Origin: a virus
Lineage: Duplodnaviria > Heunggongvirae > Uroviricota > Caudoviricetes
DNA: 19,211 bases
Virus record (IMG/VR): IMGVR_UViG_2687453529_000007
Strand: one strand, 5' to 3'
Below are positions 2,636 through 19,211 of the stretch, one piece after another. A program made the position numbers and the translations under genes. How positions within the stretch are numbered: the stretch's first letter is position 1; each line of letters starts with the position of its first letter. The notes beneath the pieces were generated by a model. The model saw nothing but the letters and a program-made list of their open reading frames with translations, was not told the origin of the DNA and ran no database searches.

Positions 2636-2647
2636 ACGATCAGTAGA

Positions 2648-2677: not shown

Positions 2678-2689
2678 ATGCCGGTTCAA

Positions 2690-3037
2690 TTACGAATTAC
2701 TGCGGCGCTGTTGCTTTTCCGCATGTACGCGTTTCACAATCTTATAAATCCATTGCAGCGTCAGATTATATTTCTTCGCTAATTCGGCGTAGTTGCGCCC
2801 ATCGCACTCGCTATAGATTTGGTAGTCACGCTCCGATGCTCGTCCGGAGATCCCCTTAGGGAAATAGATGCTTTGTCCGCCCCAGTTACGCATCATTCGG
2901 TCGGCAATGGCAAAACCCACATTTTCTGCCGATGAACTGTCGAGATTGATGCTTTCAATCAGAACTTGCGATGCATGAAAAGCCAGGTCGTTAATGATCT
3001 CCGGTGTCCGGGCCATCTCTTTTGATTTTCGTATCAT
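2690..3037 (-). CDS. Mor/C-family (phage Mu middle/late operon regulator-like) transcriptional activator, 115 aa
   Basis: C-terminal region DGRNYAELAKKYNLTLQWIYKIVKR aligns with the Mu Mor helix-turn-helix region NGRNVSELTTRYGVTFNTVYKAIRR; GGAG RBS 7 nt upstream of the ATG; divergent from the lysis/tail genes. Confidence 0.75.
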   Translation of the reverse strand: MIRKSKEMARTPEIINDLAFHASQVLIESINLDSSSAENVGFAIADRMMRNWGGQSIYFPKGISGRASERDYQIYSECDGRNYAELAKKYNLTLQWIYKIVKRVHAEKQQRRSNS

Positions 3038-3258: not shown

Positions 3259-3278
3259 TACTGTATACATATACAGTA
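3259..3278. promoter_or_regulatory. LexA (SOS) operator, near-consensus
   Basis: TACTGTATACATATACAGTA versus consensus TACTGTATATATATACAGTA (CTGT-N8-ACAG core intact, one mismatch). Lies in the AT-rich divergent region between the Mor-like gene and the lysis genes, flanked by -10/-35-like hexamers on both strands. Confidence 0.75.
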
Positions 3279-3574
3279 TTATTTTTACCTGTAGAGTAAA
3301 AAGATCGTTTCCCTCACAGTCGCTGACTTTCTTAAACAAACTTTAAAAATCAAATAACTATCGACTATTCCTACGATCCACCATCATCTTTCCCCTGCAT
3401 AATGACGCGCTTATTAGCCTGGTCACCTTTTGCTCTTTAATTGCTGAGTCGATTTATTAGCGGGCTTGTTCATTTATAGAGAATCTATTTTTTAAACTTA
3501 TTTATTAAAGCTTTTTTCATTCTTCACTGGCGGGTTCTGACGACACTAAACGCTCACTTATCAGGAGATATCGT

Positions 3575-3862: not shown

Positions 3863-3864
3863 TG

Positions 3865-4470
3865 ATGTGGCTGAAATATATCGCGTCTATGATTATTTTC
3901 GTTCTTTTCCCGCTTAACGCCTCTGAACCGCCGCGAGCCTCTCTGGCATGGCGAAACGAACTAATTCGTACAGCTCGAGAAGTCTGGGGGCTGAATGCTC
4001 CAGTGGCCGACTTTGCCGGGCAATTACACCAGGAGTCCGCCTGGCAGCCAATGGTACGTTCCCCCGTTGGCGCACAAGGTATGGCGCAATTTATGCCTGC
4101 TACAGCGACATGGATAAGCCAGTTGTATCCACAATTGCGTGAAAACAAACCGTATAACCCAACCTGGGCGATTCGCGCGCTGGTGCAATATGACCAGCAT
4201 TTGTGGAAAAACATCTCTGCGAAAAATGATTGTCAGCGTATGGCGTTTACCCTAAGCGCCTATAACGGCGGTCAGGGGTGGGTTAACCGGGATAAAAAAC
4301 TGGCTGCATCCAAAGGGTTAGATGCCACTAGCTGGTTTGGTCATGTTGAGCAAGTCAACGCCGGGCGCAGCGCCACGAACTGGCGAGAAAATCGTCGCTA
4401 TCCAAAGATGATCCTCTATCAACATGCCGCCCGCTATTTACTCTGGGGACAGGCAAGCTGTCTTCATTAA
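3865..4470 (+). CDS. Phage lytic transglycosylase (SLT domain) endolysin with N-terminal signal/SAR-like hydrophobic segment
   Basis: N-terminal MWLKYIASMIIFVLFPLNA hydrophobic stretch, then SLT motifs (LHQESAWQP with catalytic Glu, GMAQFMPATA, AYNGG). The track ORF 3787-4470 begins earlier with a non-ATG codon; ATG at 3865 sits directly after the holin stop. Confidence 0.8.
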   Translation: MWLKYIASMIIFVLFPLNASEPPRASLAWRNELIRTAREVWGLNAPVADFAGQLHQESAWQPMVRSPVGAQGMAQFMPATATWISQLYPQLRENKPYNPTWAIRALVQYDQHLWKNISAKNDCQRMAFTLSAYNGGQGWVNRDKKLAASKGLDATSWFGHVEQVNAGRSATNWRENRRYPKMILYQHAARYLLWGQASCLH

Positions 4471-4482
4471 TCAGAGGGGCCG

Positions 4483-4797
4483 ATGAAACTCAGTATCGAT
4501 TTTTGGGAAGTGATCTCCCTTATGCTTTCCTTCGTTGGATTAATGTTTGCTGCCGGAAAACTGCTGTTAGCACAAATTGAAAAACGACTTAATGAGCGTT
4601 TTGAGTCTCTGGAAAATGCCCGCAGGGAATCAGAAACAAGTTGGTCGAAACTGGAAAGAGAATTTCTCGAATTTCGTGCCGAGCTTCCGCTGCATTATGT
4701 CCGCAGAGAAGATTATCTTCGTGGGCAAGCAGTATTAGAAGCGAAGCTGGATGCCTTATATAGCAAAATCGAGCTGTTACAACGTGGCAGTTATTGA
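4483..4797 (+). CDS. Lysis accessory protein, Rz/i-spanin-like (N-terminal TM helix + coiled coil), 104 aa
   Basis: N-terminal TM segment EVISLMLSFVGLMFAAGKLLLA followed by charged coiled-coil-like sequence; position after the endolysin. No convincing embedded lipoprotein (o-spanin) ORF found by eye. Confidence 0.4.
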   Translation: MKLSIDFWEVISLMLSFVGLMFAAGKLLLAQIEKRLNERFESLENARRESETSWSKLEREFLEFRAELPLHYVRREDYLRGQAVLEAKLDALYSKIELLQRGSY

Positions 4798-4802
4798 AAA
4801 AT

Positions 4803-4834
4803 CCCCACCCTTATGTAAGGGTGGGGATTTTTTT
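4803..4834 (+). terminator. Rho-independent terminator closing the lysis cassette
   Basis: CCCCACCC-TTATGTAA-GGGTGGGG stem-loop followed by ATTTTTTT; an A-run upstream makes it potentially bidirectional. Confidence 0.85.
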
Positions 4835-4941
4835 AACCATTCAATTTTTTCTCTAAATCACATTAAAAGATTCTTCACCTTCGCTGCTTCAGAATACATT
4901 TCAACGATAACGAAGTGAGCGGTAATTAAGGTACAGCCTAT

Positions 4942-5397
4942 ATGGAAATTTTATCTGTAATGAATTCTGTTGTGACCAGATTACGTGAACACAACTCCGA
5001 AATGGATATATTTATTTCATCTAAGGATGCCCAGAAATATATTCCACAGACACAACGAGTTGCAGTGATTATTAATTATAGCGGTTCTGTCTTTGCTACG
5101 CCCGAAAGCAGTAATGCCATCGTGCAACAGCAAATACTCCGCTTAACCGCCACCGTTATTGTTGGCAAAAATTGTGATGCATTAAACGCACTTGATCACA
5201 TACGCAGCGCATTGGGTGGCCTTCCGCTTCCTGATTGTGATCGTCTGCTTTGGCTTGAAAAAGAAATTAATACGGGTGAGAGCGGCGGTTTCTGCCGCTA
5301 CATCCTGGAAATGGCGACCAGCTCGCTGTTTATCGCTGAACAGGAAAGCACGGATCTTCCCCTGCTTACGGAAGTTAACTACGAGGAAACTGAATGA
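4942..5397 (+). CDS. Putative tail completion / sheath-terminator-like protein (151 aa)
   Basis: First gene after the terminator, immediately upstream of a small ORF and the sheath gene, coupled to the next ORF. Family assignment is by position only. Confidence 0.35.
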   Translation: MEILSVMNSVVTRLREHNSEMDIFISSKDAQKYIPQTQRVAVIINYSGSVFATPESSNAIVQQQILRLTATVIVGKNCDALNALDHIRSALGGLPLPDCDRLLWLEKEINTGESGGFCRYILEMATSSLFIAEQESTDLPLLTEVNYEETE

Positions 5398-5591
5398 AAT
5401 ACATCTACAACGGCCCAGCAAGCGGCGTCACCCTTGCCGATGGACAAGAAATCTTATTGTGGCCGAACAGTGAAATTGATCTGCCAGAAGACAACGAGTG
5501 GGTCATGACCATGATTGCCCGCAATCATCTGACTCCTGTCATCACTCAGGAAGAACAAAATAACGTAGAGGAAATTGTACATGGCAGCTAA
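5394..5591 (+). CDS. Small conserved phage tail-module protein (65 aa) preceding the sheath gene
   Basis: GAGGAA RBS; ATG overlaps the upstream stop (ATGA); 3' end overlaps the sheath start by 11 nt. Function unknown. Confidence 0.4.
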   Translation: MKYIYNGPASGVTLADGQEILLWPNSEIDLPEDNEWVMTMIARNHLTPVITQEEQNNVEEIVHGS

Positions 5592-7005
5592 TTATCTGCA
5601 CGGTGTAGAAACTATTGAAATTGAAACCGGCCCGCGTCCGGTTAAAGCGGTAAAATCCGCCGTCATCGCTTTAATCGGTACATCCCCCTGCGGTCCGGTA
5701 AATAAACCAACATTATGCCTTTCTGAAAGCGATGCTGCGCAGTTTGGCTCGACTCAGGCTAACTTTACGATCCCACAGGCACTGAAGGCAATTTATGACC
5801 ACGGTGCCGGTACGGTGGTGGTGATTAACGTGCTGGATCCGGCAAAACATGGCTCCAACATCAGCAATGAGAGTATCACTTTTGATGCTAACAACCAGGC
5901 GAAGCTCGCTCACCGCAATGTGCGTAACGTGGTACTAAAGCCCTCTTCATCAAATTCATCAACCTTTAACACCGCAGCATTTAGCGTAGATGAACAAACA
6001 GGCATAATTACCCGTAAAGGAGCCGACATTCCTCCTGGTGCGAAAGTTTGTGCCTATTATTCCTGGTGCGACCCTACAAAGGTCACCGCAGCCGATATTA
6101 TCGGTACCGTAAATACCGCAGGCGACCGCACGGGGATGAAACTCCTTCAGGACACCTATAACCTGTACGGTTTCTACGCCAAAATCCTGCTTGCTCCTGT
6201 GTTTTGTACGCAAAAATCGGTGACTACTGAGCTGATTGCACAAGCGGAAAAACTCGGTGCGATTACCTACATTGATGCCCCGATTGGGACAACATTCCAG
6301 CAGGTATTGGCTGGACGCGGTTCGCAAGGGGCTATCAACTTCAATACCAGCTCTGATCGTGCGCGTTTATGTTACCCACATGTCAAAGTTTACGATGGCA
6401 TCACTAACCAGGAAATTCTTGAGCCTCTCTCTTCGCGTGCTGCCGGGCTGCGTGCCAAAGTAGACCTCGAAAAAGGTTTCTGGTGGAGCAACTCAAACCA
6501 GGAAATTCAGGGTATTACCGGTATTGAACGTTCGCTTTCCGCAATGATTGATGATCCACAAAGCGAAGTGAATCAGCTCAACGAAAACGGCATTACCACT
6601 ATTTTCAATAGTTACGGCTCTGGTCTGCGCTTGTGGGGTAACCGCACAGCGGCATGGCCTACCGTGACCCATATGCGTAACTTTGAAAACGTCCGCCGGA
6701 CAGGCGATGTAATCAATGAGTCAATCCGTTATTTCAGTCAGCAGTATATTGATATGCCGATTAATCAGGCACTTATTGACGCGCTGACCGAATCGGTAAA
6801 TACCTGGGGCCGAAAACTGATTGCCGACGGCGCACTGCTTGGCTTTGAGTGCTGGTACGATCCGGCACGAAATTCACCGGCTGAACTCAGCGCCGGGCAT
6901 TTATTGCTGAGCTATAAATTCACCCCGCCACCGCCGCTGGAACGTCTGACGTTTGAAACTGAAATTACTTCTGAATATTTAGTCTCTCTGGAGAGCAATA
7001 GCTAA
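5581..7005 (+). CDS. Contractile tail sheath protein (P2 gpFI-like)
   Basis: N-terminus MAANYLHGVETIEIETG resembles P2 FI (YHHGVQVLEINEG) and the C-terminus LLSYKFTPPPPLERLTFETEITSEYL resembles P2 FI ([26 protein letters not shown]). GAGG RBS 9 nt upstream of ATG 5581; the track ORF begins at TTG 5575. Confidence 0.9.
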   Translation: MAANYLHGVETIEIETGPRPVKAVKSAVIALIGTSPCGPVNKPTLCLSESDAAQFGSTQANFTIPQALKAIYDHGAGTVVVINVLDPAKHGSNISNESITFDANNQAKLAHRNVRNVVLKPSSSNSSTFNTAAFSVDEQTGIITRKGADIPPGAKVCAYYSWCDPTKVTAADIIGTVNTAGDRTGMKLLQDTYNLYGFYAKILLAPVFCTQKSVTTELIAQAEKLGAITYIDAPIGTTFQQVLAGRGSQGAINFNTSSDRARLCYPHVKVYDGITNQEILEPLSSRAAGLRAKVDLEKGFWWSNSNQEIQGITGIERSLSAMIDDPQSEVNQLNENGITTIFNSYGSGLRLWGNRTAAWPTVTHMRNFENVRRTGDVINESIRYFSQQYIDMPINQALIDALTESVNTWGRKLIADGALLGFECWYDPARNSPAELSAGHLLLSYKFTPPPPLERLTFETEITSEYLVSLESNS

Positions 7006-7529
7006 TGGCTGGAAAAATTCAAATTAACCGTATTACCAACGCCAATATTTATCTCGATGGTAATAACCTTTTAGGTCGTGCAACAGAAATTAAATTGCCG
7101 GATGTAAGTTTAATTATGCAGGAGCATAAAGCACTGGGCATGGTGGGTAAAATCGAACTCCCGGCAGGTTTCGATAAACTGGAGGGCGAAATTAAATGGA
7201 ACTCCTTCTATCAGGACGTAATGCGTAAAACGGCAAACCCGTGGCAGGCGGTTGCATTACAGTGCCGCTCCAGTATTGATTGCTATAACTCCCAGGGGAA
7301 AGCGAATCAATTAGCGCTAGTGACACATTTAACCGTGATGTTTAAAAAGAATCCACTGGGCACATTTAAACAGAATGAAAACCCGGAATTCAGCAGCGCC
7401 TTTGGTTGCACTTATATTAAACAAGTAGTTGATGGTGAAACGCTGCTTGAACTTGATTATATGGCCAATATTTTCCGGGTTAATGGTGTGGATCAATTAA
7501 GTACCTATCGCAATAACATCGGTGGCTAA
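7005..7529 (+). CDS. Tail tube protein (P2 gpFII-like)
   Basis: Start overlaps the sheath stop; C-terminus NGVDQLSTYRNNIGG matches the P2 FII end NGVDRLEQHRRNIGL. Confidence 0.85.
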   Translation: MAGKIQINRITNANIYLDGNNLLGRATEIKLPDVSLIMQEHKALGMVGKIELPAGFDKLEGEIKWNSFYQDVMRKTANPWQAVALQCRSSIDCYNSQGKANQLALVTHLTVMFKKNPLGTFKQNENPEFSSAFGCTYIKQVVDGETLLELDYMANIFRVNGVDQLSTYRNNIGG

Positions 7530-7579
7530 GTTATTCGGGGCTACGGCCCCGAACTTTGCAAAATAAATAAGGACACAAA

Positions 7580-7897
7580 ATGAAAGAACATTATATCTTG
7601 CAGTTTCCATTTACGTCGGCAGCAGGAAATAATATCGACACGCTGCAATTACGTCGCCTGAAAGTAAAAGATATGCGCAACGCCCGCCGGATCAGCGAAA
7701 AGCCAGAAGAGTGGGATGAACCGCTGATGGCGGCGATGACCGGACTGGTGCCAGAAGATTTAGCCGAAATGGATTTGCTGGATTACCAGGCATTGCAGAA
7801 ACGATTTCAATCCATGCTTACCGTGGTTACAGAATCCTCCCCTGCTATGGCAGGCAATGGCGCTACTGGCGAGATGGTTTCGCTTTCCGCCCAGTGA
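7580..7897 (+). CDS. Tail assembly chaperone (gpE/gpG-like), short product
   Basis: Small acidic protein between tube and tape measure genes, the position of frameshifting tail chaperones. Confidence 0.6.
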   Translation: MKEHYILQFPFTSAAGNNIDTLQLRRLKVKDMRNARRISEKPEEWDEPLMAAMTGLVPEDLAEMDLLDYQALQKRFQSMLTVVTESSPAMAGNGATGEMVSLSAQ

Positions 7898-7985
7898 GAT
7901 AGACGCCCTTACCGTCGATGACTTTAGCAACTGGCTGGATGAAGCCAGCGCCCAAATAAAAATCGAATATGACTCGCAGACCTGA
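7580..7985 (+). CDS. Frameshift-extended chaperone isoform (E+E'-like), requiring a +1 shift
   Basis: A +1-frame ORF is open from 7764 to the TGA at 7983-7985 and would append ...PPSEIDALTVDDFSNWLDEASAQIKIEYDSQT. The only candidate shift motif seen is CTT_TCC at 7883-7888. Site and mechanism are not proven. Confidence 0.4.
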
Positions 7986-8086
7986 TGTCTGCGAGTTTCC
8001 CAAGCCCGTCAGGTTTATTTCTTCCCTGCCCCTTTTTTTAGAAAAATAACCAGCGGGCCATTATCAATATTTAAAGAGAAACAATT

Positions 8087-8887
8087 TTGGCCAACGATAT
8101 TATTACCCAGCTTCAGGCGCGTAATGAGACGTTGACGCAGGCAATAGCCCGTTACGGCTCACTCAACGCCAGAACATTGTTAACTCTCTCTACTCAGCAG
8201 GCGACAGTTATCAAACTAACGCAGCAGCTTGCCGATTCCGCTCTCCGCCTGGAGGAAAATAGCCGCAGCCGCGCTAATCTGATGGAGAAAACCCAAACAT
8301 TTGCCGGGCAATTTAGCAAAGTATTCAATGTTGAAGCCCCCGACTGGAAGTTGCCGTATGAGTTTCAGGACAACATGGTCAATATGGCGACCAAAGGTGG
8401 GATGAATGCTACAACCCGCGAGACGCTCAGCCTTAATCTGCGCGACTGGAGCATGGATTTTAACCAGCAGCAGACCACCTTACAGAACGCAGCCCAAACG
8501 CTGATCGAAGGCAATTTGTCGTCGATGCAGGATCTCAACCGTTATATGCCGGAGATCGCCAAAGCTGCCACCGCCACGCGCGAAAGTGCTGAAACGTGGG
8601 CGAATGCCGCGCTCGCGACTCATGATCGACTGAATATTGCCCCGGAAAATTTCCACGCCGCGCAAAACATGATGTACGGCATTAGCAAAAGCGGTGGGCC
8701 TGCCATTGCTGAACAAACGCAGTGGATAGAGAAATTTGCAGGTAAAACCGGCGCTCAGGGTCTGGAAGGTATGGCTGAACTGACTGCCGCCATGCAGATC
8801 GCAATGAAAAATGGGGCCAGCGCCAGTGCGGCGGCGGAGAATTTTGAACCACTTTCTGCAAACCACCTTTTCGAAAAAAACCGATAG
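8087..8887 (+). CDS. Tail tape measure protein, N-terminal segment (frame A); TTG start
   Basis: Helical N-terminal region typical of tape measure proteins; ends at TAG 8885-8887 while a second frame continues. In-frame stop at 8072-8074 restricts the start to the TTG at 8087 (RBS AAGAG upstream). Confidence 0.6.
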   Translation: MANDIITQLQARNETLTQAIARYGSLNARTLLTLSTQQATVIKLTQQLADSALRLEENSRSRANLMEKTQTFAGQFSKVFNVEAPDWKLPYEFQDNMVNMATKGGMNATTRETLSLNLRDWSMDFNQQQTTLQNAAQTLIEGNLSSMQDLNRYMPEIAKAATATRESAETWANAALATHDRLNIAPENFHAAQNMMYGISKSGGPAIAEQTQWIEKFAGKTGAQGLEGMAELTAAMQIAMKNGASASAAAENFEPLSANHLFEKNR

Positions 8888-10463
8888 CTGGTTCGCCAGC
8901 CAGGGCGTCGATCTGCAAGGCTCTCTGCTTGAACATCAGCAAAACGGTATGGGTGTTAGCGAAGCCATGACTCATATCGTACAAATGCAGCTTGAGAAGA
9001 TGAACCCGGCGATCCTCGACACCTTCAAACGTACTATGCAGATTGAAGATTTATCTGCTCGCAGCAATGCGCTGCAATCGATGGTGTCGCAATTTAATCT
9101 GGGCGAAATGTTCGGCGATGTGCAAACGGTGGAATTCCTGGCACCTATGCTGGCGAATATGGAGGAATATCGCCAGTTAAAAGCCTCTGCCATGCAAGCC
9201 ACCAGCAAGAATCTGATTAACGCTGACTTTTCTGCGCAAATGGCCTCGCCCATTGAACAGACTAAAGCGTTACAGCTGGCATTAAATGATTTATGGCTCA
9301 GCATTGGTTTGCAGCTTATGCCGGCGATTGGCGAGCTGGCACAAAGCCTTACGACGGTTATTCGCCAGTTCAGCGCCTGGCTACGCGAACATCCGGCGCT
9401 GGTGCAAAACATTGCGAAAATCGTCGGGGCGGTTTGGCTGTTTAACGGCGCGCTGAATGTTTTAAAGCTGGGCGCGAACCTCATCACCTCGCCGTTTATT
9501 CGTCTGGTCGATATCTTCCTGAAAGTCAAGGCAAGTCTGGCGCTCACAGGCGGGGCAAGTAAGATGCTATCAGCGGTTAAGTCATTGGGTGGCGGCGCAA
9601 AATGGCTAATGCAACTGCTTGGTCGTGGCCTGATTGGCGCACTGAAACAGGTAGGTCAGACCGTCTTCTGGTTGGGTAGGGTTTTATTGATGAATCCCAT
9701 TGGTCTGGTCATCACTGCGATTGCGGGCGCTGCTTATCTGATTTGTCGCAACTGGGAGCCTATCTCCAGGTTCTTTTCGACCATCTGGCAACGTATCACC
9801 ACGGCCTTTGACGGCGGCATTGCAGGAATTTGTCGGTTGATTCTCGACTGGTCACCGCTGGAGTTGTTCTATAGCGCCTTTTCCAGTGTGATGAATTGGT
9901 TTGGTGTCGAGATGCCTGCAAGTTTTAGCGAGTTCGGCAGCAATCTTCTGGGCAGTCTGGTTGACGGCATAATGAATGCCTTCCCCGCTCTGAAAGGCAT
10001 TATTGATCAGGTAAAAAACGCCATCCCAGACTGGCTAAAAACCACGATGGGTATTAGTACAGAAGGATCGGCTACAGCTATTACAAGCACGACTAATACC
10101 GCATCCGTCTCCCCCGCGACCGTTGTTCCAGGCGTTGCCGGTGCGATTTTAACACCGCCGGTGGGCAAACAACTCGCGCCATCCGGCAAAACGGCTACGC
10201 CGTCATCGGCGCCAGCGGCAAAAAATACAGCCGCCAAACCCGTATCTGCCTCTTTACCTGGTAAATCCGTAACCAAACCGGCGACGCTACCCTCCCGTTC
10301 CTCAGGAAAAGTCCAGGTAAATTTTTCGCCACAAATTACCGTGCAGGGTAACGGACAAAACACCACTAAAGAGATTCAGAACGTGTTGACGATGAGTAAA
10401 CGCGAACTGGAAAGAATGATTAACGATGTAATGGCGCAGCAGCAGCGCCGGGGGTATGCCTGA
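8811..10463 (+). CDS. Tail tape measure protein, main/C-terminal segment (frame B, +1 relative to frame A)
   Basis: Frame B opens after the TGA at 8805-8807 and encodes typical tape-measure content (LQTTFSKKTDSWFASQGVDLQ motif region, long hydrophobic/Gly-Ala-rich middle, Ser/Thr/Pro-rich tail). Segments together total about 790 aa. Confidence 0.65.
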   Translation: MGPAPVRRRRILNHFLQTTFSKKTDSWFASQGVDLQGSLLEHQQNGMGVSEAMTHIVQMQLEKMNPAILDTFKRTMQIEDLSARSNALQSMVSQFNLGEMFGDVQTVEFLAPMLANMEEYRQLKASAMQATSKNLINADFSAQMASPIEQTKALQLALNDLWLSIGLQLMPAIGELAQSLTTVIRQFSAWLREHPALVQNIAKIVGAVWLFNGALNVLKLGANLITSPFIRLVDIFLKVKASLALTGGASKMLSAVKSLGGGAKWLMQLLGRGLIGALKQVGQTVFWLGRVLLMNPIGLVITAIAGAAYLICRNWEPISRFFSTIWQRITTAFDGGIAGICRLILDWSPLELFYSAFSSVMNWFGVEMPASFSEFGSNLLGSLVDGIMNAFPALKGIIDQVKNAIPDWLKTTMGISTEGSATAITSTTNTASVSPATVVPGVAGAILTPPVGKQLAPSGKTATPSSAPAAKNTAAKPVSASLPGKSVTKPATLPSRSSGKVQVNFSPQITVQGNGQNTTKEIQNVLTMSKRELERMINDVMAQQQRRGYA

Positions 10464-11416
10464 TGTATGCCGTTTTAGGAGAGATTGAATTTAAGGTTGT
10501 CACATTCTGGGACGGCTTTAAAAGCACAATGGGCGTGGATTACGCCACACATGCCCGTATAGAAGGCAAACCCGGCGTGCAGTTTATTGGCGATAAGCTG
10601 GATATGCTGGCGCTGGAATTTTCCCTGCACAGCCAGTTTTGCCAGCCCACAACAGAGCTGAACCGACTGCGTGAAGCCATGCTTGCTCACAAGGCGATGG
10701 CACTGGTATTTGGCAATGGCGATTATCGCGGCTGGTTTGTGATTACGGAGCTAACCGCCACCCACCAGCACACCGATCCCTGGGGCAATGTGATTGCCCA
10801 AAACGGAACGATGTCGCTCCAGGAGTACACCGGCGATCCTAAAAATCCACTTTTACCTCCGGCGATTACCACCCAGGAGCCCAACATCGAGGAAAAGGCG
10901 AGCGATTTTCCCGACAAGGTGGAGTCCTGGTTTGATCAGATATTAAACGCCATCGAAGAAGGTATGCGTAAGGCCAAAGAGATGCTGGATGAACTGACAC
11001 AAGCCATTGAAGATATTAAAAAAACGGTGGCAAAAGTGAAAGCAATGATTAAAGAGGCCAAAGCGTTAAAAGAAAAGTGTGAAAAGATAATTACGTCATT
11101 GAAAAAGACAATCGACGCCATCGAAACCCTGTTTAAACAGCCAATGGATCTGCAAACGCTGGCAGGACTCCCAAAAGCGTTGTCGGCGCAGATTAAAACT
11201 TTACTGGGTAACATGCCAGGTATCCGGGACTGCGCCAATGACGCCAGTACACTGGTTGACCATGCTCAGGCGCTTTTCGACGACATTACCAGCGACATCG
11301 CCGAAGCGACGTTTGATAAAGCCGCAACGTTGGTTGATCAGGCACGAACAACGGTACAACAAACCACTCCCACAGTGAGCCAGCTTGCTGCCGCGACCAT
11401 TACGAGGATCTGGTGA
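10463..11416 (+). CDS. gpU-like tail protein with long C-terminal coiled-coil extension (317 aa)
   Basis: Sits between tape measure and gpX/gpD as P2 gpU does; ATG overlaps the tape measure stop (TGATG). C-terminal ~190 aa are E/K/A-rich predicted coiled coil. Assigned by synteny and weak N-terminal resemblance. Confidence 0.5.
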   Translation: MYAVLGEIEFKVVTFWDGFKSTMGVDYATHARIEGKPGVQFIGDKLDMLALEFSLHSQFCQPTTELNRLREAMLAHKAMALVFGNGDYRGWFVITELTATHQHTDPWGNVIAQNGTMSLQEYTGDPKNPLLPPAITTQEPNIEEKASDFPDKVESWFDQILNAIEEGMRKAKEMLDELTQAIEDIKKTVAKVKAMIKEAKALKEKCEKIITSLKKTIDAIETLFKQPMDLQTLAGLPKALSAQIKTLLGNMPGIRDCANDASTLVDHAQALFDDITSDIAEATFDKAATLVDQARTTVQQTTPTVSQLAAATITRIW

Positions 11417-11625
11417 TGCGATACCTTGAACATATCACCACCGACGGCGAACGCTGGGATAATCTGGCATGGCATTACTACGGTGATGCGCTGGCTTATG
11501 AACGCATAATCGCCGCCAATCCACATGTAGCCATTTACCCGGTACTGCCTTCCGGTATTCAGCTCATTATTCCGGTCATTTCCGTCAATAAAACCTTATC
11601 GGAGATCCCACCATGGCTGAGATAA
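11416..11625 (+). CDS. gpX-like small tail protein (LysM-like fold)
   Basis: Pattern L-x-x-I-x-x-x-x-ERWD-x-L-A-W-x-YYGD...AANP...LPSG matches the P2 gpX family; ATG 11416 overlaps the upstream TGA (track start 11413 is a GTG). Confidence 0.6.
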   Translation: MRYLEHITTDGERWDNLAWHYYGDALAYERIIAANPHVAIYPVLPSGIQLIIPVISVNKTLSEIPPWLR

Positions 11626-12653
11626 GCGTAACTGGTGGCGTCTTTGCCACACTCACGCCCATTTTTACCCTCTGGTATGGGCATAAAGATATCACTTATG
11701 ACATCACACCCTATGTCACCAGCATCAGTTACCACGACAGCATCAAAAACGAGTCGGATACCATCGCAATTACACTGGATGACACAGATGGACGCTGGAT
11801 AAAAGAGTGGTATCCCGGCAAAGGCGATACGCTGGCGCTGCATATGGGTTATCAGGGAGAGAAGCTGCTCGATTGTGGTCAGTATATTATTGATAAAATT
11901 GATATTTCAGCGCCACCTTCTACGGTAAATATTGATGGCATCGCCACTTCCGTCAATCAGGCGCTGCGCACCCGTAACAGCCAGGGTTTTGAAGAAACGA
12001 CGCTTTCGGCTATCGCCAGCCGTATCGCACAAACTCACGGCCTAAAGCTGGTGGGCAAAATCGAGCCTCTGACAATTGACCGGGTGACACAGTACGGCGA
12101 AACCGATGTTGGATTTCTCAAACGTCTGGCCAGTGAATATGGTTATGCCGTAAAAGTGACGACGAAAGAGCTGATTTTTTCACATTTACCCACGCTGCGC
12201 TGCCTGGCACCTGTGAAAAAGATCGACCGCAAAGACGTTTCGCATTTCACCTTCAAAGATACCATTAACCGTATCTACAAAAACGCCACCGTACAGCATC
12301 AAAATAGTAAGAAAAAAGAACTGGTTATCTACACTCACAACAGCCAGCAAAAACCGTCTGCCCGTGGAGTCGGCACCAGTGCCGACACGCTAAAACTGAA
12401 CAGTCGGGCGACGGACGTTGGCGCAGCACAGGCAAAAGCCAACGCTGCACTCGACAGCCACAACGAATATCAGCAAACCGGAACGCTCACAATGATGGGC
12501 TGCCCGGAACTGACGGCGGGCAATAAAATCGAGCTAACCGATTTTGGCGTGCTTTCCGGTCAATGGCTAATTGATAAATCGACTCACAGTTTTGTGCGCA
12601 GCGGCTATACCACTGAAATCGACGTGTCGCGCGGGCCAGCGACCAGCCAGTAA
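11613..12653 (+). CDS. gpD-like tail protein (late control D family; baseplate hub)
   Basis: Collinear similarity to P2 gpD: TLSAIASRIAQ / DVGFLKRLASEYG / C-terminal DFGVLSGQWLIDKSTHSFVRSGYTTEIDV. GGAG RBS. Confidence 0.8.
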   Translation: MAEISVTGGVFATLTPIFTLWYGHKDITYDITPYVTSISYHDSIKNESDTIAITLDDTDGRWIKEWYPGKGDTLALHMGYQGEKLLDCGQYIIDKIDISAPPSTVNIDGIATSVNQALRTRNSQGFEETTLSAIASRIAQTHGLKLVGKIEPLTIDRVTQYGETDVGFLKRLASEYGYAVKVTTKELIFSHLPTLRCLAPVKKIDRKDVSHFTFKDTINRIYKNATVQHQNSKKKELVIYTHNSQQKPSARGVGTSADTLKLNSRATDVGAAQAKANAALDSHNEYQQTGTLTMMGCPELTAGNKIELTDFGVLSGQWLIDKSTHSFVRSGYTTEIDVSRGPATSQ

Positions 12654-12662
12654 GGAGGAAAT

Positions 12663-13364
12663 ATGAAAGGAGTAACCCGTCAAACGGGGATTATCAGCGA
12701 TATTGACGAAACCAGCGTTCGGGTGCGGGTCACGCTCCCGGAGTGTGACAATCTGAAGAGCAACTGGCTTGCGGTACTTCAACGCAATTCCCAGGACAAT
12801 AAAGACTACTGGCTACCGGATATGGGCGAGCAAGTGGAAGTTCTGCTGGACAATAACGGTGAAGATGGCGTGGTGCTGGGCGCAGTTTATTCTACGGTTG
12901 ACACCGCGCCTGTAGCCTCGCGCGACAAACGTTACGTCCAGTTTTCTGATGGCGCAGCGTTTGAATATGACCGCAGCACGCACCAGCTGACGATCAACGG
13001 CGGTATCGAGAAAATCGTGATTGAGGTTATCAACGGTACCTGCCTGACATCGCCCAACGTTGAGATTAAAGCCCAACAGGTCACCGTGACTTCCGATACC
13101 GTCGATGTTAAAGCGACCGATGTCAGCATCGACGCCACTAAGGTCGAGGTTAAAGCAGCAGCAGTGACGGTAGATGCGCCCATGAGCACCTTTACTGGCA
13201 ACGTCACGGTAATGAAAAAACTCACCTGGCTTGGCGGGATGGCAGGAAGTGGAGGCATCGGTAACGCAGCCACGATAACCGGCAATGTCAACGTGATCGG
13301 CAACGTTCAGGCCAGCGGCGCATTGCAGGACAGCGGTGGCAACTCCAACCACCATTCACACTGA
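12663..13364 (+). CDS. gpV-like baseplate spike protein
   Basis: Strong RBS TAAGGAGG; MGEQVEVLLDNNGEDGVVLGAVYS and VQFSDGAAFEYDRSTHQLTINGG match P2 gpV motifs; C-terminal His-rich tip NHHSH. Confidence 0.85.
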   Translation: MKGVTRQTGIISDIDETSVRVRVTLPECDNLKSNWLAVLQRNSQDNKDYWLPDMGEQVEVLLDNNGEDGVVLGAVYSTVDTAPVASRDKRYVQFSDGAAFEYDRSTHQLTINGGIEKIVIEVINGTCLTSPNVEIKAQQVTVTSDTVDVKATDVSIDATKVEVKAAAVTVDAPMSTFTGNVTVMKKLTWLGGMAGSGGIGNAATITGNVNVIGNVQASGALQDSGGNSNHHSH

Positions 13365-13369
13365 CGTTT

Positions 13370-13399
13370 AACCCGCCTGATGGCGGGTTTTCTCTTTTT
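13370..13399 (+). terminator. Intrinsic terminator inside the tail gene cluster (between gpV-like and gpW-like genes)
   Basis: AACCCGCC-TGAT-GGCGGGTT stem-loop followed by TTCTCTTTTT. Confidence 0.7.
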
Positions 13400-13462
13400 A
13401 ATCAATCAGTTTTCTAAATCGCTTTAATATCTCCACAGCCCGTTCAGGGCGAAAATACCCTC

Positions 13463-13822
13463 ATGAACACAAAAACACGCCCCTCAACGCTGCACTGGCA
13501 ACCGGCCTTGCTGCGGCCTGAAGAATACGTCTGCGGACTGGATGATATTCACCAGGCAATACACATCATTCTGCGTACACCGCGCGGCAGTGATCCCCAC
13601 AGACCGCTGTTTGGCAGCAACTTGTGGCACTACATCGATTACCCCATCGAGCGGGCTATCCCGCATGTGGTACGGGAGTCGGTGGAAGCCATCCGCCAGT
13701 GGGAACCGCGCTGTCGGTTGCTGAAGGTGACACCAGTAATCGACGGCGAACATCTGACGTTACGTGTGCAATGGCGCGCCGCTGACGGCGTTATCAACTC
13801 AACGGAGGTGTTATGGCGATAG
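13463..13822 (+). CDS. gpW-like baseplate protein (GPW/gp25 family)
   Basis: ILRTPRGSDPHRPLFGSNLWHYIDYP and WEPR match P2 gpW (ILRTPVGSRVMRRDYGSLL...IDQP, KWEPR). Confidence 0.85.
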   Translation: MNTKTRPSTLHWQPALLRPEEYVCGLDDIHQAIHIILRTPRGSDPHRPLFGSNLWHYIDYPIERAIPHVVRESVEAIRQWEPRCRLLKVTPVIDGEHLTLRVQWRAADGVINSTEVLWR

Positions 13823-14928
13823 CCGAACCCAATTTTATTGACCGCGATCCTGCGCAAATTACCAGTGAGATGATTGCGCAATACGAAGATGCCAGTGGTA
13901 AAAAACTCTATCCGGCACAGGCTGAGCGGTTGCTCATCGACCTGTTTGCCTATCGTGAAAACCTTGTACGCATCGCCATTCAGGAAGCGGCGAAACAAAA
14001 CCTGGTCGCGTATTCCCGCGCGCCAATGCTGGATTATTTAGGAGAGCTGGTGGGCGTTCACCGTTTGCCTGCGCAGCCAGCAAAAACGACGTTGCAGTTT
14101 TCGGTCGTCAGTGCGTATACCAGCAATATCCTGATTCCCCAGGGGACGCGGGCCAGTGCCTCTGATAGCGTGATGTTCGCCACCGATGAAGATGTTCTGC
14201 TTCCGGCCTGGAGTTTGCATATCGCCGTTCCTGCCACCAGCCTCGCAGCAGGTGAACAGGGTAACGGCTGGCAGCCTGCACAAATTAGCGCTCTGGTCGA
14301 CAGGATTGGTCATTATGACATCAACGTAACCAACCTGACTGCGTCAACGGGCGGCTGCGGTGAAGAGAGCGATGACGCATTGCGCCAGCGTATCCAACTG
14401 GCACCAGAAAGCTTTAGTAATGCGGGCAGCTATGGCGCATACCGCTTTCATACGCTTTCTGTTAGCCAGTCGATTATTGACGTTGCAGTACTGGGGCCGG
14501 ACGAGGGATTGCCAGAAGGCTGCGTGGAGATCTACCCGCTAACCCTGAATGGACTGCCAGGAATAGAACTGCTCGCGCAAATCGAACAGGAGGTTAGCAA
14601 GGAGAAAAAACGTCCGCTGACCGACAAAGTGAGTGCGAAATGCGCTCTTCGAGTGCCGTATGAGATCCGTGCGCAGCTAACGCTGTTTACCACCGCCGAT
14701 CAGGAGACAACGCTGGCTGCGGCGCGTAAAGCGATTAGCCTCTGGACGCAACAGCGGCAGAAACATCTGGGGCAAGACATTGTGCCAAACCAGATAATCA
14801 AAGTGTTACAGGTCGATGGCGTCTATGACGTTGCGCTGAACTTGCCTACAAAACGTATTTTGCAGGCGCATGAATGGGCGGAATGCACTGCAATAGACGT
14901 CACGATCGCCGGAGTTAGCGATGGATAA
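13813..14928 (+). CDS. gpJ-like baseplate wedge protein
   Basis: Size, position after gpW and overlapping start (GGAGG RBS) fit the P2 gpJ / Mu gp47 family. Confidence 0.8.
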   Translation: MAIAEPNFIDRDPAQITSEMIAQYEDASGKKLYPAQAERLLIDLFAYRENLVRIAIQEAAKQNLVAYSRAPMLDYLGELVGVHRLPAQPAKTTLQFSVVSAYTSNILIPQGTRASASDSVMFATDEDVLLPAWSLHIAVPATSLAAGEQGNGWQPAQISALVDRIGHYDINVTNLTASTGGCGEESDDALRQRIQLAPESFSNAGSYGAYRFHTLSVSQSIIDVAVLGPDEGLPEGCVEIYPLTLNGLPGIELLAQIEQEVSKEKKRPLTDKVSAKCALRVPYEIRAQLTLFTTADQETTLAAARKAISLWTQQRQKHLGQDIVPNQIIKVLQVDGVYDVALNLPTKRILQAHEWAECTAIDVTIAGVSDG

Positions 14929-15637
14929 ATTGCTACCACCGCCGCCGCTTGCCAGCGATGAGCGTTTTTCGATTCTGGCAAATATCGCCGCCGAGCGTTT
15001 TGCCCAACTCGATCTGACGGCGTTGATGGTTTATCTGGTCGACCTGGTTGATGCTTCGGCATTACCAGCCCTTGCAGAACAATTTCACGTTCAGGGGTTG
15101 GAAGGTTGGTTATTTACCACCGATGAGCGGGAGAAACGCGAGTTAATTAAACAAGCCATTGAACTGCATAAATATAAAGGAACAATTTGGGCGGTGCGGC
15201 GGGTGCTGGAAATACTCTCCTTACCCGGAACTATTTCAGAATGGTTTGAATATGGGGGAAGGGCTTACTTTTTTAAGGTTGATATTACACTAGAGAAAAA
15301 AGGATTAAATGAAGATGAATTCAATGCACTTATCACATTAATTCATGAATATAAAAATGTCCGTTCAAAGCTGGAAAGCATTGTTATTTGGCTTATTAAT
15401 CGAAGCCCAATACCAGTTATTGGCAGTGCCATGCAAGGAGGGGAAGTCATTACAGTATTGCCTCCTGTTGCAGAAAGCCTCAGCCAGTCATCTGGAATAT
15501 TTTTAGCGACAGGTTATTGTGTGGAGGAATATATTCAACTACTACCTTATCAACCCGATCGACTAACACAATCCCAACCGATGAAGGTCGGCACAGGATA
15601 CTGGAGCACCGAAATTATGTCTGTATATCCGGAGTAA
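14921..15637 (+). CDS. gpI-like baseplate/tail protein
   Basis: [15 protein letters not shown] matches P2 gpI HCHKGTIGAIRRVVE; overlaps the gpJ-like stop. Confidence 0.8.
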
Positions 15638-15639
15638 TA

Positions 15640-17250
15640 ATGGCAAGTGAATTTTTTACAATATTAACTGCTGCAGGCAAAGCCAAAATTGCCTCAGCAC
15701 TGGCCGAGCAAAAACAGATCCGTCTGCAAACTATGGTAGTTGGCGACGGTAATGGTAAATATATCGAACCGACAGAAAGTCAGACCAAAGTAGTCCATGA
15801 GGTCTGGCGTGGTCAGCTCAATACATTAAAAATTGCGCCAGATAATCCGGCCTGGGTTATCGCAGAAGCGATTATTCCCGAACAAGTCGGAGGCTGGTAT
15901 GTACGCGAAGTTGGGTTACTGGATACCGACGGCACGATGGTCGCTATTGGTAAATTCCCGGAAACCTATAAGCCACGATTACCTGCGGGGGCCAGTAAGC
16001 AAATCGTTATACGCGCGGTCATGGAAGTCACCAATGCAGATGCGGTGACGCTTTTGATCGACCCTTCAGTCGTTGTGGCAACCAGGGAATATGTCGATGA
16101 CGCGTTGAAAACACATCAGCAATCACGAAATCATCCTGATGCGACGCTGACACAAAAAGGTTTTACGCAGCTGAGTAATGCGACTAATAGCGATGATGAA
16201 ACCAAAGCGGCCACGCCAAAAGCGGTAAAAACGGCATATGACCTGGCAAATAGCAAAGCTGCCACCAGTCATAATCATGCCTGGAATCAGATTACTGGTA
16301 TCCCTGATGGTACACTGACGCAGAAAGGAGTCGTTAAGCTTAACAATACAACAAATAGCACCAGTACGACGGAAGCTGCAACACCAAGTGCGGTTAAGGC
16401 AGCGATGGATAAGGCTATTGCTGCGGCACCGTCCAGCCATACCCATGCCTGGGGGCAAATAACAGGTATCCCCGACGGTACGCTGACGCAAAAAGGGGTC
16501 GTGAAACTTAATAATGCGACCAACAGCACCAGTACGACGGAAGCTGCAACGCCGAACGCTGTTAAGGCAGCGATGGATAAGGCTATTGCTGCGGAAAGCT
16601 GTCCTGTTGGGATGCCTATTCCCTGGCCATCTGATTCTGTACCTTCAGGCTACGCTCTGATGACAGGTCAGACATTTAATAAAACCTCCTATCCCAAACT
16701 GGCAATTGCATATCCATCTGGTGTTATTCCTGATATGCGCGGATGGATAATTAAAGGAAAACCATCCAGTGGGCGCGCTATATTATCTACTGAACTGGAT
16801 GGAGTTAAATCACATAACCATACGGGCAGTATTTCGAGTACGGACTTAGGGACGAAATCTGTATCATCAATAGATCTAGGAACAAAGAACACTCAGTCAT
16901 TTAATCATGGGATAAAAACAACAAATACAGCAGGCGCGCATAGCCATGATAGTGGTTCTGGCGAAAGTAGTGAGGGGGGAAAACCTCGGTATGGTACTCG
17001 TGATAACACAACAAATAATTTTGGTTCTGGTGAATCAGATCATGACAATTACAAATTTAACACATCCACGGATGGAGAGCATGCACATTCAGTTAATGTT
17101 GGCTCACACTCTCACTCTGTTATTTTAGGGTCACATAATCATTCAATTGCCCTTGGTTCCCATAATCACTCCCTAACCATTAATAATACCGGCAACACCG
17201 AAAACACCGTCAAAAATATCGCATTCAACTATATTGTGAGGCTAGCATGA
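15640..17250 (+). CDS. Tail fiber protein (P2 gpH-like N-terminus, repeat-containing shaft, His-rich C-terminal receptor-binding region), 536 aa
   Basis: N-terminus [18 protein letters not shown]...HEVWRGQLN...[20 protein letters not shown]...[14 protein letters not shown] is collinear with P2 gpH. GGAG RBS 5 nt upstream of ATG 15640; the track ORF 15517 begins upstream inside the gpI-like gene. Confidence 0.85.
16267..16602 (+). repeat. Tandem 168-bp (56-codon) direct repeat, two copies, within the tail fiber gene
   Basis: Two near-identical units encoding SH(N/T)[47 protein letters not shown], with a degenerate third copy upstream; matches the phage tail fiber repeat class. Confidence 0.8.
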
Positions 17251-17954
17251 ATACTTTTACCTTTTCCGATGAAGCTCAAATACTAACTGTATATAATTTT
17301 TCACAAGACTCCCAAGAATATATCGGTGAGTCTGATGCATACATTGCACCTAATACAGGCTTGCCAAATTATTGCACATTAATTTCACCTCCCGAAAAGG
17401 TTCCTGGTTTTACTCCAGTGTGGGAGAATGAAACATGGAGACTTATTGAAGATCATCGAGGCCAAACTGTTTATAACAAAGTTGATGGTAGCCAGCTTAT
17501 TATTCAAGAATTGGGCCAATTACCTGAAAATGTAACAGTCATTTCCCCGACAGGTTCTTTTGAACGTTGGGATGGTGAAAAATGGCAACCATCTATAACC
17601 GATGCTAAAGAGGCGAAATACTCTGCAATCAAAAATCAACGCGATGCCATCACAACCGATTACATCATCATCAACAACCATCACTTCCACAGTGATACAA
17701 ATAGCCGTATCCAACAGCTTTCACTCACAAAAATGGGAGCGGAGAAAAAAATTCCGCCAGGTTTAATGTGGAAAACTAAAAATAATGGTCTGATTGAGTT
17801 AACCAACGAAATCGCTGCCCAGTTTGAATCGGTCACCATGGATCACGATATGCGCTTGTTCGCAAACGCCCAGCGTCATATCGCGGCGGTGGAAGCACTG
17901 GACGATATTCAGGCGGTGCTCGACTACGATTATTCAACAGGCTGGCAACCATGA
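17247..17954 (+). CDS. Tail fiber assembly chaperone (Tfa / gpG family)
   Basis: N-terminal half [44 protein letters not shown]...[34 protein letters not shown] closely parallels lambda Tfa; ATGA overlap with the fiber gene stop. Confidence 0.85.
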
Positions 17955-18406
17955 GTAAAACCACTGTCTGGCTCGCTTGTTATAAGGGCCGAACAGAGCA
18001 CCGTGGTATTGCCCGACTGGCTGACTGGCTTACCCGTAAAATCACACGCGGTCATTATTCCCACTGTGAATTAGCCGTTAAGCATGGTGAAAAGAGATAC
18101 CTTTGTTACTCTGCATCACTGCGCGATCGCGGTGTACGCGGAAAGATAATGCCATTGCCAGCGGATAAGTGGGATATGCTGCCGCTCCAGGCTAGCCTTC
18201 AGGATGTGGAAACTTTTTTCCGTAAACATGATGGCAAAAAATATGACTGGCGCGGAGCATTAGGAATTATTACCGGTAATAAAGAACAGCGCGATCGCCT
18301 GTTTTGCAGTGAATTTTGTGCTGAATTTCTGCAACTGAAGGAAAGCTGGCGCTATTCTCCAAACCACTTGTACGCTTTAGTCAGCAGCTGGCAATACCAG
18401 CAATAA
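17951..18406 (+). CDS. Hypothetical protein (151 aa) coupled to the tail fiber chaperone; possible His/Cys permuted-papain-like (LRAT/NlpC-P60 superfamily) enzyme
   Basis: ATGA overlap with the Tfa stop. Contains GHYSHCELAV and, about 75 residues later, RLFCSEFCAEFL, loosely resembling the His-then-Cys motif order of permuted papain-fold proteins. The fold assignment is tentative. Confidence 0.5.
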   Translation: MSKTTVWLACYKGRTEHRGIARLADWLTRKITRGHYSHCELAVKHGEKRYLCYSASLRDRGVRGKIMPLPADKWDMLPLQASLQDVETFFRKHDGKKYDWRGALGIITGNKEQRDRLFCSEFCAEFLQLKESWRYSPNHLYALVSSWQYQQ

Positions 18407-18419
18407 ATCACGCCGGGCT

Positions 18420-19211
18420 TTATGCCCGGCACATTACCGTTTGATACAGCAAATTATCTAGCTCCCGAACATCTCCATCTCGACTGTCCGGTAAAATCGG
18501 TGGAATTTCCCCGCGCGCCAGTTCCGCGCGAATAAACGCATGCAATAAAGGACGGCGCAGTCCATATTCCGCTTCACTCGCACGCTGTTTACGCTCCAGC
18601 AATTCATCTATTTCTGCGCGTAAGGCCGCATCCAACTCACTTCCCGCCAGTAACTCGGCAAAGCGCATTGGCGGCACGCCTTTTCCCGCTTCAACCCAGC
18701 GTACGGCCAGCAGCGGGCGCAGCACGTAAAAGTATTTTTTCAGTCGAACTTCGTCGCCCTGTAAATAACCGCGAAAGTTTTTCTGCGCCATCGAATAGTA
18801 ATGCCAACGCGCGCGCAACGAAGAAAACCACATTGGGACCATTGCCTTAAGCGCCGTTATCGTTTCTTCATCTTGTTGATAGACCACCGGAGAATCCAGC
18901 CATTCTATCAGCGTCGGATTCGCGCCTTTCAATAATCCCAGCGCCTTACGCCACTCCCAACCGGAAACATCTAACTCGTCGTCGATAGGCAGTTCGATAA
19001 CATCGCGCGGTGACTCTACACGCAGATACCATTCTAGCGGATGGACATACAAAAACCGTACATCGTAGTCGCTATCGGGCGAGGCAAATCCCCAGCCGCG
19101 GCTGCCTGATTCACAGGCGTACAGCACTTTCACGCCATAGCGACGTTCTATTTCTTTTAACTGCTGCGATACCCGTTCGCGCATCGCAGCACTGACTCCA
19201 TTTAATGGCAT
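18420..19211 (-). CDS. Pol-beta-superfamily nucleotidyltransferase-like protein (263 aa), convergent with the tail operon
   Basis: N-terminal motif ESGSRGWGFASPDSDYDVRF matches the G[SG]-x9-13-D-x-D nucleotidyltransferase signature, followed by a helical C-terminal domain; start codon is at the window edge (19209-19211). Confidence 0.55.
   Translation of the reverse strand: MPLNGVSAAMRERVSQQLKEIERRYGVKVLYACESGSRGWGFASPDSDYDVRFLYVHPLEWYLRVESPRDVIELPIDDELDVSGWEWRKALGLLKGANPTLIEWLDSPVVYQQDEETITALKAMVPMWFSSLRARWHYYSMAQKNFRGYLQGDEVRLKKYFYVLRPLLAVRWVEAGKGVPPMRFAELLAGSELDAALRAEIDELLERKQRASEAEYGLRRPLLHAFIRAELARGEIPPILPDSRDGDVRELDNLLYQTVMCRA

Follow-up and report, generated by a model that had tools for sequence, protein, structure and literature searches.

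A probable operon boundary, with a terminator and a candidate Mor/C-type promoter, between the baseplate genes V and W of a headless tail cluster in Escherichia coli

The spacer between the gpV-like spike gene and the gpW-like wedge gene of a headless contractile-tail cluster is probably the boundary of two late transcription units, at which a terminator is followed by a Mor/C-type promoter and from which a leaderless W mRNA would start. I hold this reading with reasonable, though by no means complete, confidence, as it rests on the comparison of the DNA with that of its relatives. The first-pass annotation of this DNA (the window, by which I mean the whole stretch of 19,211 nucleotides that was analysed, IMG/VR record IMGVR_UViG_2687453529_000007) had already proposed that the tail genes are split into two units here, and the comparison supports such a division, with one putative unit running from the gp37-like gene through the sheath to the spike, and the other from the wedge to the fibre. 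The boundary is an ordinary kind of feature in an unstudied element, and it is plausible that it sets the stoichiometry of the tail proteins, as had also been suggested. Together with the other signals described below, it provides a testable transcription map, with three predicted Mor-type promoters and two terminators, for a widespread and unstudied headless tail cluster of the Enterobacteriaceae.

Results

The window is a headless BcepMu-like contractile-tail cluster beside lysC in the E. coli chromosome, and its positions 1509-19211 are 99.98% identical to the lysC-yjbD region of E. coli CFSAN061771. The cluster opens with the minus-strand gene of a Mor-family activator and with genes for a holin, an SLT-type endolysin and a membrane protein, after which come the tail genes (gp37-like, sheath, tube, chaperone, tape measure, U, X, D, V, W, J, I and fibre); two fibre-associated genes complete the contractile-tail set. 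Pfam confirms Mor, Gp37, GpU, GPD, Phage_base_V, GPW_gp25 and Baseplate_J in the window, and the annotation of the whole island contains no head, terminase or transposase genes. The segment 12600-14000 is present in 194 of the 5426 complete E. coli genomes, with one copy each and on the chromosome in every case, and the headless cluster is found in the identical chromosomal context in Salmonella (STM4196-4219), Superficieibacter, Phytobacter and Dryocola. Judged by the W protein, the nearest actual phages belong to Bcepmuvirus, namely Klebsiella KP12 and Escherichia PhiKM (67-68%), followed by BcepMu and phiE255 (~60%). Scanning genome contigs with V yielded few enterobacterial species, and a scan of IMG/VR with W was a much richer source of relatives. 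The headless cluster is a candidate tailocin; a search of the literature on Salmonella STM4203-4219, on a tailocin at this locus and on late promoters of BcepMu returned nothing useful.

Some peculiarities concern this strain or the ends of the cluster. The first 1508 positions of the window consist of an IS903B transposase and a fragment of a TonB-dependent receptor gene instead of the DNA upstream of lysC, which is truncated at 1509; the same combination occurs on many plasmids and chromosomes, which suggests that this left end is a transposition unit that entered lysC in this strain. Relative to NZ_CP042896, the tape-measure gene (8087-10463) has one additional A at 8847, by which it is divided into two open reading frames, 8087-8887 and 8811-10463. 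This is either a pseudogene in this strain or a sequencing error, and as the gene is frameshifted here, the cluster may be inactive in this strain. Within the tail-fibre gene, two adjacent segments of ~162 nt (16265-16426 and 16433-16594) share 84% identity and form an internal tandem duplication. After the tail cluster lies a gene for an RlaP-family nucleotidyltransferase (18420-19211, minus strand), separated from the last tail gene by a bidirectional-looking hairpin (18409-18433). The RlaP-family gene is also present in three of the related loci (L004, L005 and L007). Both in the matching genome and in other genera, the gene after it encodes a slipin-family protein, and the two genes may therefore be part of the island.

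Table 1. Positions of the genes and predicted signals in the window (A1, alignment of 18 distinct enterobacterial V-W gaps)
Feature	Positions	Strand	Remarks
Mor/C-family activator gene, sole regulator of the cluster	2690..3037	-	PF08765 Mor, E = 7e-38; RefSeq agrees
Probable third promoter, before the holin gene: TAAAG, 31 nt, GACACT	3506..3547	+	second half-site degenerate
Second intrinsic terminator, after the lysis cassette	4798..4834	+	-24.3 kcal/mol
Second copy of the promoter pattern, TAAAT-CACA-TTAAAA ... CAGAAT	4854..4895	+	before the gp37-like gene, the first tail gene
gpV-like spike gene, last of the putative upstream unit	12663..13364	+	PF04717 Phage_base_V, E = 4.8e-8; 'phage baseplate assembly protein V' in RefSeq
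Terminator hairpin AACCCGCC-tgat-GGCGGGTT	13370..13389	+	8-bp stem with 6 G-C pairs, 4-nt loop, -14.8 kcal/mol
Terminator T-tract TTCTCTTTTT	13390..13399	+	T-rich run kept in A1; the stem itself ends in TT
TAATCAA block, about -64 to -58 of the predicted promoter	13399..13405	+	(nearly) invariant in A1
A/T-rich near-dyad TAAAT-CGCT-TTAATA, predicted site of the Mor-family activator	13415..13429	+	-48 to -34 if +1 is 13463
Spacer of variable sequence and constant length	13430..13450	+	free variation in A1
Inverted repeat around the hexamer, AGGG (13446-13449) / CCCT (13458-13461)	13446..13461	+	covaries in relatives
-10-like hexamer GAAAAT	13451..13456	+	nAnnAT in all relatives; always 31 nt past TAAAK
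gpW/gp25-like wedge gene, first of the putative downstream unit	13463..13822	+	PF04965 GPW_gp25

The terminator after V

V ends with a TGA at 13362-13364 and W starts with the ATG at 13463, which leaves 98 nt (13365-13462) between them, and a hairpin followed by a T-tract begins 5 nt past the V stop codon (Table 1). The canonical stem-loop plus T-tract and the 98-bp gap that the first-pass annotation had placed here are thus indeed present at the positions given, and the signal is conserved, as the CCCGCC/GGCGGG core stem and the T-run are invariant in alignment A1, with a variable loop. The 121-nt region folds more stably than its shuffled versions (z = -2.6). With a threshold of at least 8 pairs, at least 6 of them G-C, and a T-run, the whole window contains three terminator-like sites this good on its two strands, versus 0.27 +/- 0.54 in 60 dinucleotide shuffles; since so few are expected by chance, and since this one follows a stop codon by 5 nt within a spacer of 98 nt, the terminator is not a product of chance. 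On the minus strand the hairpin is not followed by a T-run, and the signal is therefore one-directional. The site thus has the sequence features of an intrinsic terminator: a G+C-rich stem-loop, a U-tract on the V strand, a non-coding site past a stop codon, and maintenance in relatives. An Rfam scan of 13200-13650 at permissive E-values gave a best score of 18.5 bits against a threshold of 56.4, for a match that covers the terminator hairpin only.

The terminator is absent from BcepMu and PhiKM, and within Salmonella REP elements are found in its place. As BcepMu and PhiKM do have the promoter-like module described below, the terminator appears to be a lineage-specific addition that lies outside the core design.

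The gap had been singled out on the grounds that all other tail genes overlap or are tightly coupled. This is roughly correct, except that tube and chaperone genes are 50 nt apart, chaperone and tape-measure genes 189 nt, and that a second, stronger terminator and gap (4798-4941) precede the first tail gene. The 189-nt stretch is the usual frameshift-extension region. The second terminator is composed of TCCCCACCC-ttatgtaa-GGGTGGGGA and a T7 run, after which 107 nt of non-coding DNA follow. Directly past the tube gene lies a further hairpin, GGGGC-tacg-GCCCC (7537-7551), which has no T-run; the tube gene of BcepMu is followed, at the corresponding position, by a canonical terminator, GGCCCGC-ttcg-GCGGGCC with T6 (L075, ~24515-24540).

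A promoter-like module before W

I right-aligned 33 distinct sequences upstream of W, taken from loci in which W is between 100% and ~60% identical to the query, and a fixed layout without any indels is observed: an A/T-rich near-dyad, a spacer of ~20 nt, the hexamer nAnnAT, exactly 6 nt, and the ATG of W. The near-dyad is kept down to phages at 60% W identity and is a perfect 14-bp palindrome in Salmonella (TTAAAGCGCTTTAA), and BcepMu and PhiKM carry the entire module inside V-W gaps of just 53-54 nt. The TAATCAA block farther upstream is possibly an UP-like element or an upstream contact of the activator; a sequence that resembles it, TAACCATTCAA, precedes the second copy of the promoter near 4836. 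For comparison, a partial UP element is documented for Pm of phage Mu (PMC4390567).

The module was also written as an explicit pattern, TAAAK-N4-TTAAWA-N21-NANNAT, with up to one mismatch. The window contains exactly two matches, 13415-13456 before W and 4854-4895 before the gp37-like gene (0.04 expected), and BcepMu also contains exactly two, before the holin gene gp21 and before gp32, the equivalent of Mu gene I (0.00 expected). As the pattern was derived from these same sequences, the two BcepMu matches are only a semi-independent test. Over the 76 fetched loci all matches are on the + strand, and the positions that were checked lie ~48 nt before the start of W or before the gp37-like gene, with the exception of the two in BcepMu and one in L058. 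The copy before the gp37-like gene is conserved in six genera and many loci. A third promoter is probable before the holin gene, where enterobacterial clusters have TAAAG and, after 31 nt, (G/C)A(T/C)ACT, with a degenerate second half-site.

When an HMM of the sites upstream of W was run with nhmmer, the other two sites of the window were aligned in register, though not significantly (E = 1.8 for the holin site, and 5.6); the case consequently rests on the explicit pattern, the constant geometry and the cross-genus footprints. A scan with the sigma-70 consensus did not find a -35/-10 pair in the V-W gap, as is expected for an activator-dependent promoter. A check for an internal promoter in 13400-13462 had been recommended, and the segment 13415-13456 is a strong candidate, of a type that is common to other operon starts of the family. 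The consensus TAAAG-N4-TTAAA-N21-nAnnAT could be used to annotate late promoters of BcepMu-like prophages.

Two of the individual matches deserve separate mention. The one in L058, a distant prophage, is additional to those before W and the gp37-like gene and lies ~5.5 kb downstream of W (6305-6346); it could be a further late promoter, like Pmom of Mu. In BcepMu (L075, 18813-18854), the predicted -10 before gp32, GATGAT, overlaps the annotated start codon of gp32 (18850), which suggests that this start may have been annotated too far upstream.

Mor/C promoters have a -10 hexamer, no -35, and an imperfect 16-bp dyad centred at -43.5 (PMC2582627; PMC4390567; bioRxiv 10.1101/2025.05.02.651988). 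If +1 is placed at the W ATG, a position that is itself predicted, the centre of the dyad is at -42.5 in E. coli and Salmonella and at -43.5 in BcepMu; the dyad here is 12-14 bp long and imperfect in E. coli, versus 16 bp (5+6+5) in Mu. With an activator of this family encoded in the element, a -10 without a usable -35, and the same element repeated before other late operons, the module upstream of W is probably a Mor/C-type late promoter, and transcription from it would depend on the Mor-family protein.

The start of W

About 30 distinct sequences, with W identities as low as 60%, all have the same 6 nt between the hexamer and the ATG. Of the 19 genes in the cluster, W pairs most weakly with the anti-Shine-Dalgarno sequence (-2.4 kcal/mol, the others ranging from -2.9 to -12.1); V has a strong Shine-Dalgarno sequence (AAGGAGG) and J has a GGAGG of its own. 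The start codon of W is ATG in all relatives, so that the gene begins, as leaderless genes do, with an AUG that lacks a Shine-Dalgarno sequence. Its first codons differ between E. coli and Salmonella almost only synonymously, which argues that the ATG at 13463 is the real start. From the invariant distance and the lack of a Shine-Dalgarno sequence I predict that the W-J-I-fibre mRNA is leaderless, with its 5' end at the A of this ATG. If confirmed, this would be a conserved, family-wide leaderless mRNA for a structural gene in Gammaproteobacteria and Betaproteobacteria.

Taken together, these features suggest how the boundary could work. A BcepMu-like tail module would have lost its head and transposition genes. 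The transcript begun before the gp37-like gene, which would cover sheath, tube, tape measure, hub and spike, would be ended or attenuated by the Rho-independent terminator just past the V stop codon. Directly past this terminator, the proposed sigma-70 promoter of the Mor/C type would have its dyad ~43 bp upstream of the start, no -35, and the weak -10 GAAAAT; the Mor-family protein of the cluster would bind the dyad and recruit RNA polymerase, and transcription would start at the A of the W ATG, to give the leaderless W-J-I-fibre mRNA. The terminator would keep polymerases that arrive from upstream from running over the W promoter. The stretch between terminator and promoter would have no function of its own, and in relatives extra DNA appears to have landed there repeatedly.

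A covarying hairpin around the hexamer

The hexamer is enclosed by an inverted repeat, whose 3' arm ends 0-1 nt before the W ATG and which takes the form of 26 distinct stems in 35 distinct sequences. These stems include AGGC/GCCT, GAGGC/GCCTC, GGGAC/GTCCC and GGGGT/ACCCC, and further GGGGGG/CCCCCC, GCGGC/GCCGC, GCGAC/GTCGC and GGGGGCA/TGCCCCC. The mean stem is 4.37 bp long and fell to 3.26 +/- 0.15 bp when arms were swapped between sequences; 0 of 2000 permutations reached the observed value, a result that is uncorrected for relatedness. On the sense strand several stems include G-U pairs, and this suggests an RNA structure, spanning -17 to -1, in transcripts that read in from upstream. The repeat would thus imply that transcripts which include -17 to -1 are produced and are of functional importance, and a leaderless start alone does not account for the hairpin. 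It is missing from three loci (L027, L068 and L071), and the other copies of the promoter do not have a hairpin around their hexamer.

One way to accommodate both would be two modes of transcript for W, an idea that I consider speculative and rather improbable. Only transcripts from the Mor promoter, with their 5'-terminal AUG, would be translated, and the hairpin would silence W in read-through RNA from upstream, be it the long late transcript or that of cargo such as gtrABC expressed in the uninduced cell. If this were true, the same 17 bases would hold both a -10 element and an RNA insulator, and the arrangement would explain why the V|W junction serves as a safe store of foreign genes in BcepMu-like elements.

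The covariation and the G-U pairs also fit an explanation that dispenses with the internal promoter, which I regard as unlikely. Here W to fibre would be expressed by read-through of a leaky attenuator, and the block before W would be a translational operator at the RNA level, the hairpin presenting a conserved loop beside the AUG to a protein or to the ribosome in a long mRNA. Read-through RNA certainly exists in BcepMu and PhiKM, which lack the terminator. However, the hexamer is also found at 31 nt from TAAAK before the gp37-like gene, the BcepMu holin gene and gp32, sites that lack a hairpin and lie 28-60 nt from the start codon, and the A/T dyad is unable to fold alone and, with +1 at the W ATG, would have the position of Mor/C sites. 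Moreover, W has no Shine-Dalgarno sequence to unmask, and the genes from W to fibre of Salmonella are intact although they lie behind 3.3 kb of foreign DNA.

Alternatively, the promoter could be real with its -10 at TTTAAT/TAATAT (13424-13430) and its start near 13437, the dyad being an overlapping operator. TAATAT is a reasonable -10, and the covarying hairpin would fall within the transcript, as it would make up almost the whole of a 26-nt leader. I nevertheless consider this very doubtful, as it leaves neither a -35 nor a conserved upstream site for an activator, and conservation in distant relatives starts only at the dyad. The constant 6 nt between hexamer and ATG and the conserved A-11, A-8 and T-7 would be left unaccounted for as well, and the other copies of the pattern retain the downstream hexamer. 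The promoter with its -10 at GAAAAT and its start at the W ATG is therefore the reading that I prefer.

Insertions in the 5' half of the gap

The 5' half of the V-W gap is a local hot spot of insertion and replacement. In Salmonella, REP-like elements replace the terminator and the 3.3-kb gtrABC operon (STM4204-4206) lies between V and the promoter module, and the genes from W to fibre are conserved downstream of it. Phage-derived regions are a known location of gtr operons in Salmonella (PMC3688519), and the proposed boundary would explain how Salmonella can carry this O-antigen modification operon amid its baseplate genes without breaking the series. In Salmonella Infantis (L002, 11738-15062, corresponding to LT2 STM4204-4206), gtrABC is flanked by direct repeats of ~45 bp (gtgcat.aacac.ggcccggtaagcgcagaagcgccaccgggcaaa), which contain a REP-like hairpin. 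The locus L041 represents the empty site, with a single copy of the repeat; its flanks are 94-100% identical to those of L047, and the sole difference is the presence of REP versus terminator in the 5' half of the gap.

Other genera show other inserts: a REP-like one in the terminator loop of Phytobacter, which extends the gap to 176 nt, and an ERIC-like one in Dryocola, with a gap of 258 nt. The gap of complete BcepMu-like prophages can hold a gene, either a CV_2116-like/DUF6566 gene of 81-93 aa on the + strand (L060, L062, L063, L069 and L070) or a DUF4145 gene of 217-232 aa on the minus strand (L064, L065, L066 and L068). The promoter module beside W is untouched in every insertion case. 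In the window, the 98-nt gap has no open reading frame that could represent a moron, and extra genes occur only in the relatives. In Binataceae and other Deltaproteobacteria, which are distant relatives, V and W are 0-1 nt apart.

These insertions could be taken to mean that the terminator is what remains of a lost moron, or else a neutral hairpin, and has no part in the regulation of the tail cluster itself, the more so as complete BcepMu-type phages do without it and the Salmonella lineage exchanged it for REP elements with nothing else changed. I find this hard to reconcile with a stem and T-run that are invariant across at least five genera, at 20-25% divergence of the flanks and with a drifting loop, with a terminator that always lies 3-8 nt past the V stop codon, and with the same order of terminator and then promoter at 4798-4895 in the cluster, and I give it slightly less credit still than the alternative -10. 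A terminator that forms part of the operon boundary agrees better with these observations.

Least credible of all is the possibility, also raised in the first-pass annotation, that the gap marks a mosaic joint between sheath-to-spike and wedge-to-fibre modules of different ancestry, which is rejected by identity profiles, distance-matrix correlation and breakpoint scans: although megablast similarity to Salmonella starts at 13401 and the Salmonella counterparts are 96% identical in W versus 80% in V, the same step is present against every genus (identities of 75-82% for D and V, and of 85-93% for W and the beginning of J), which indicates constraint on W and not ancestry, the pairwise distances of D+V and of W+J are correlated across the gap (Mantel r = 0.84, 0 of 2000 permutations), and the visible breakpoints lie inside J (~+700) and I (~+1900), with none at the gap.

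Comparison with known systems

The late promoters of phage Mu are four in number and serve the lysis, head-tail, baseplate-fibre and mom genes (PMC2582627; PMC4390567; bioRxiv 10.1101/2025.05.02.651988). The resemblance of the candidate promoters described here to Plys, PI, PP, Pmom and Pm of Mu consists of an encoded activator of the Mor/C family, a -10 without a -35, and a dyad that would be centred near -43, as well as of several copies that head the operons for lysis, morphogenesis and baseplate/fibre. Pm of Mu even has a terminator hairpin directly upstream of its Mor-type promoter, as in the V-W gap. The half-sites, however, differ in sequence and spacing (5+6+5 in Mu, TAAAG-N4-TTAAA in this family); the published Mor site of Pm I did not locate by eye on the Mu sequence. 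Mu uses a cascade of Mor and then C, whereas the element in the window has one Mor/C protein. Furthermore, the V-like gp45 and the W-like gp46 of Mu overlap without a gap, unlike V and W in the window, which suggests that a promoter at V|W is specific to the BcepMu lineage. The baseplate promoter PP of Mu is presumably two genes earlier than this pair; according to the Mu annotation table, in which PP is not marked, gp43 and gp44 overlap there, and PP would fall in coding sequence. Late transcripts of Mu are not known to be leaderless.

BcepMu, with its gp48-gp49 junction, is the closer parallel. It shares the gene order U, X, D, V | W, J, I, H, it has a 53-nt gap at V|W while all neighbouring genes overlap, and it has the same module of dyad, hexamer, 6 nt and ATG, including the hairpin around the hexamer. 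It differs in that its gap contains no terminator, and in being a complete transposable phage, whereas the cluster in the window is headless, chromosomal and fixed beside lysC.

In P2, the genes VWJIHG form a separate late operon for baseplate and fibre under the promoter PV, in likeness to the proposed downstream unit. The operon starts at V and is activated by the zinc-finger protein Ogr, with a dyad near -55, and its first gene is reportedly translated from a leaderless transcript (Christie and Calendar 1985, relayed in reviews on leaderless mRNAs). The differences thus are the activator and the first gene of the operon, as the downstream unit here would start with W.

Gene 25 of T4, which belongs to the same gp25/W family of wedge genes, likewise has a hairpin immediately upstream of its start codon, and this hairpin reportedly brings a distant Shine-Dalgarno sequence close to the AUG (Nivinskas et al. 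1999). Upstream of the hairpin of W there is no Shine-Dalgarno sequence. Finally, the spacer resembles the sites of moron and gtrABC cassettes, as its Salmonella counterpart holds the foreign gtrABC between two late genes; the gap in the window differs in that it contains no gene, but only the terminator and the predicted promoter.
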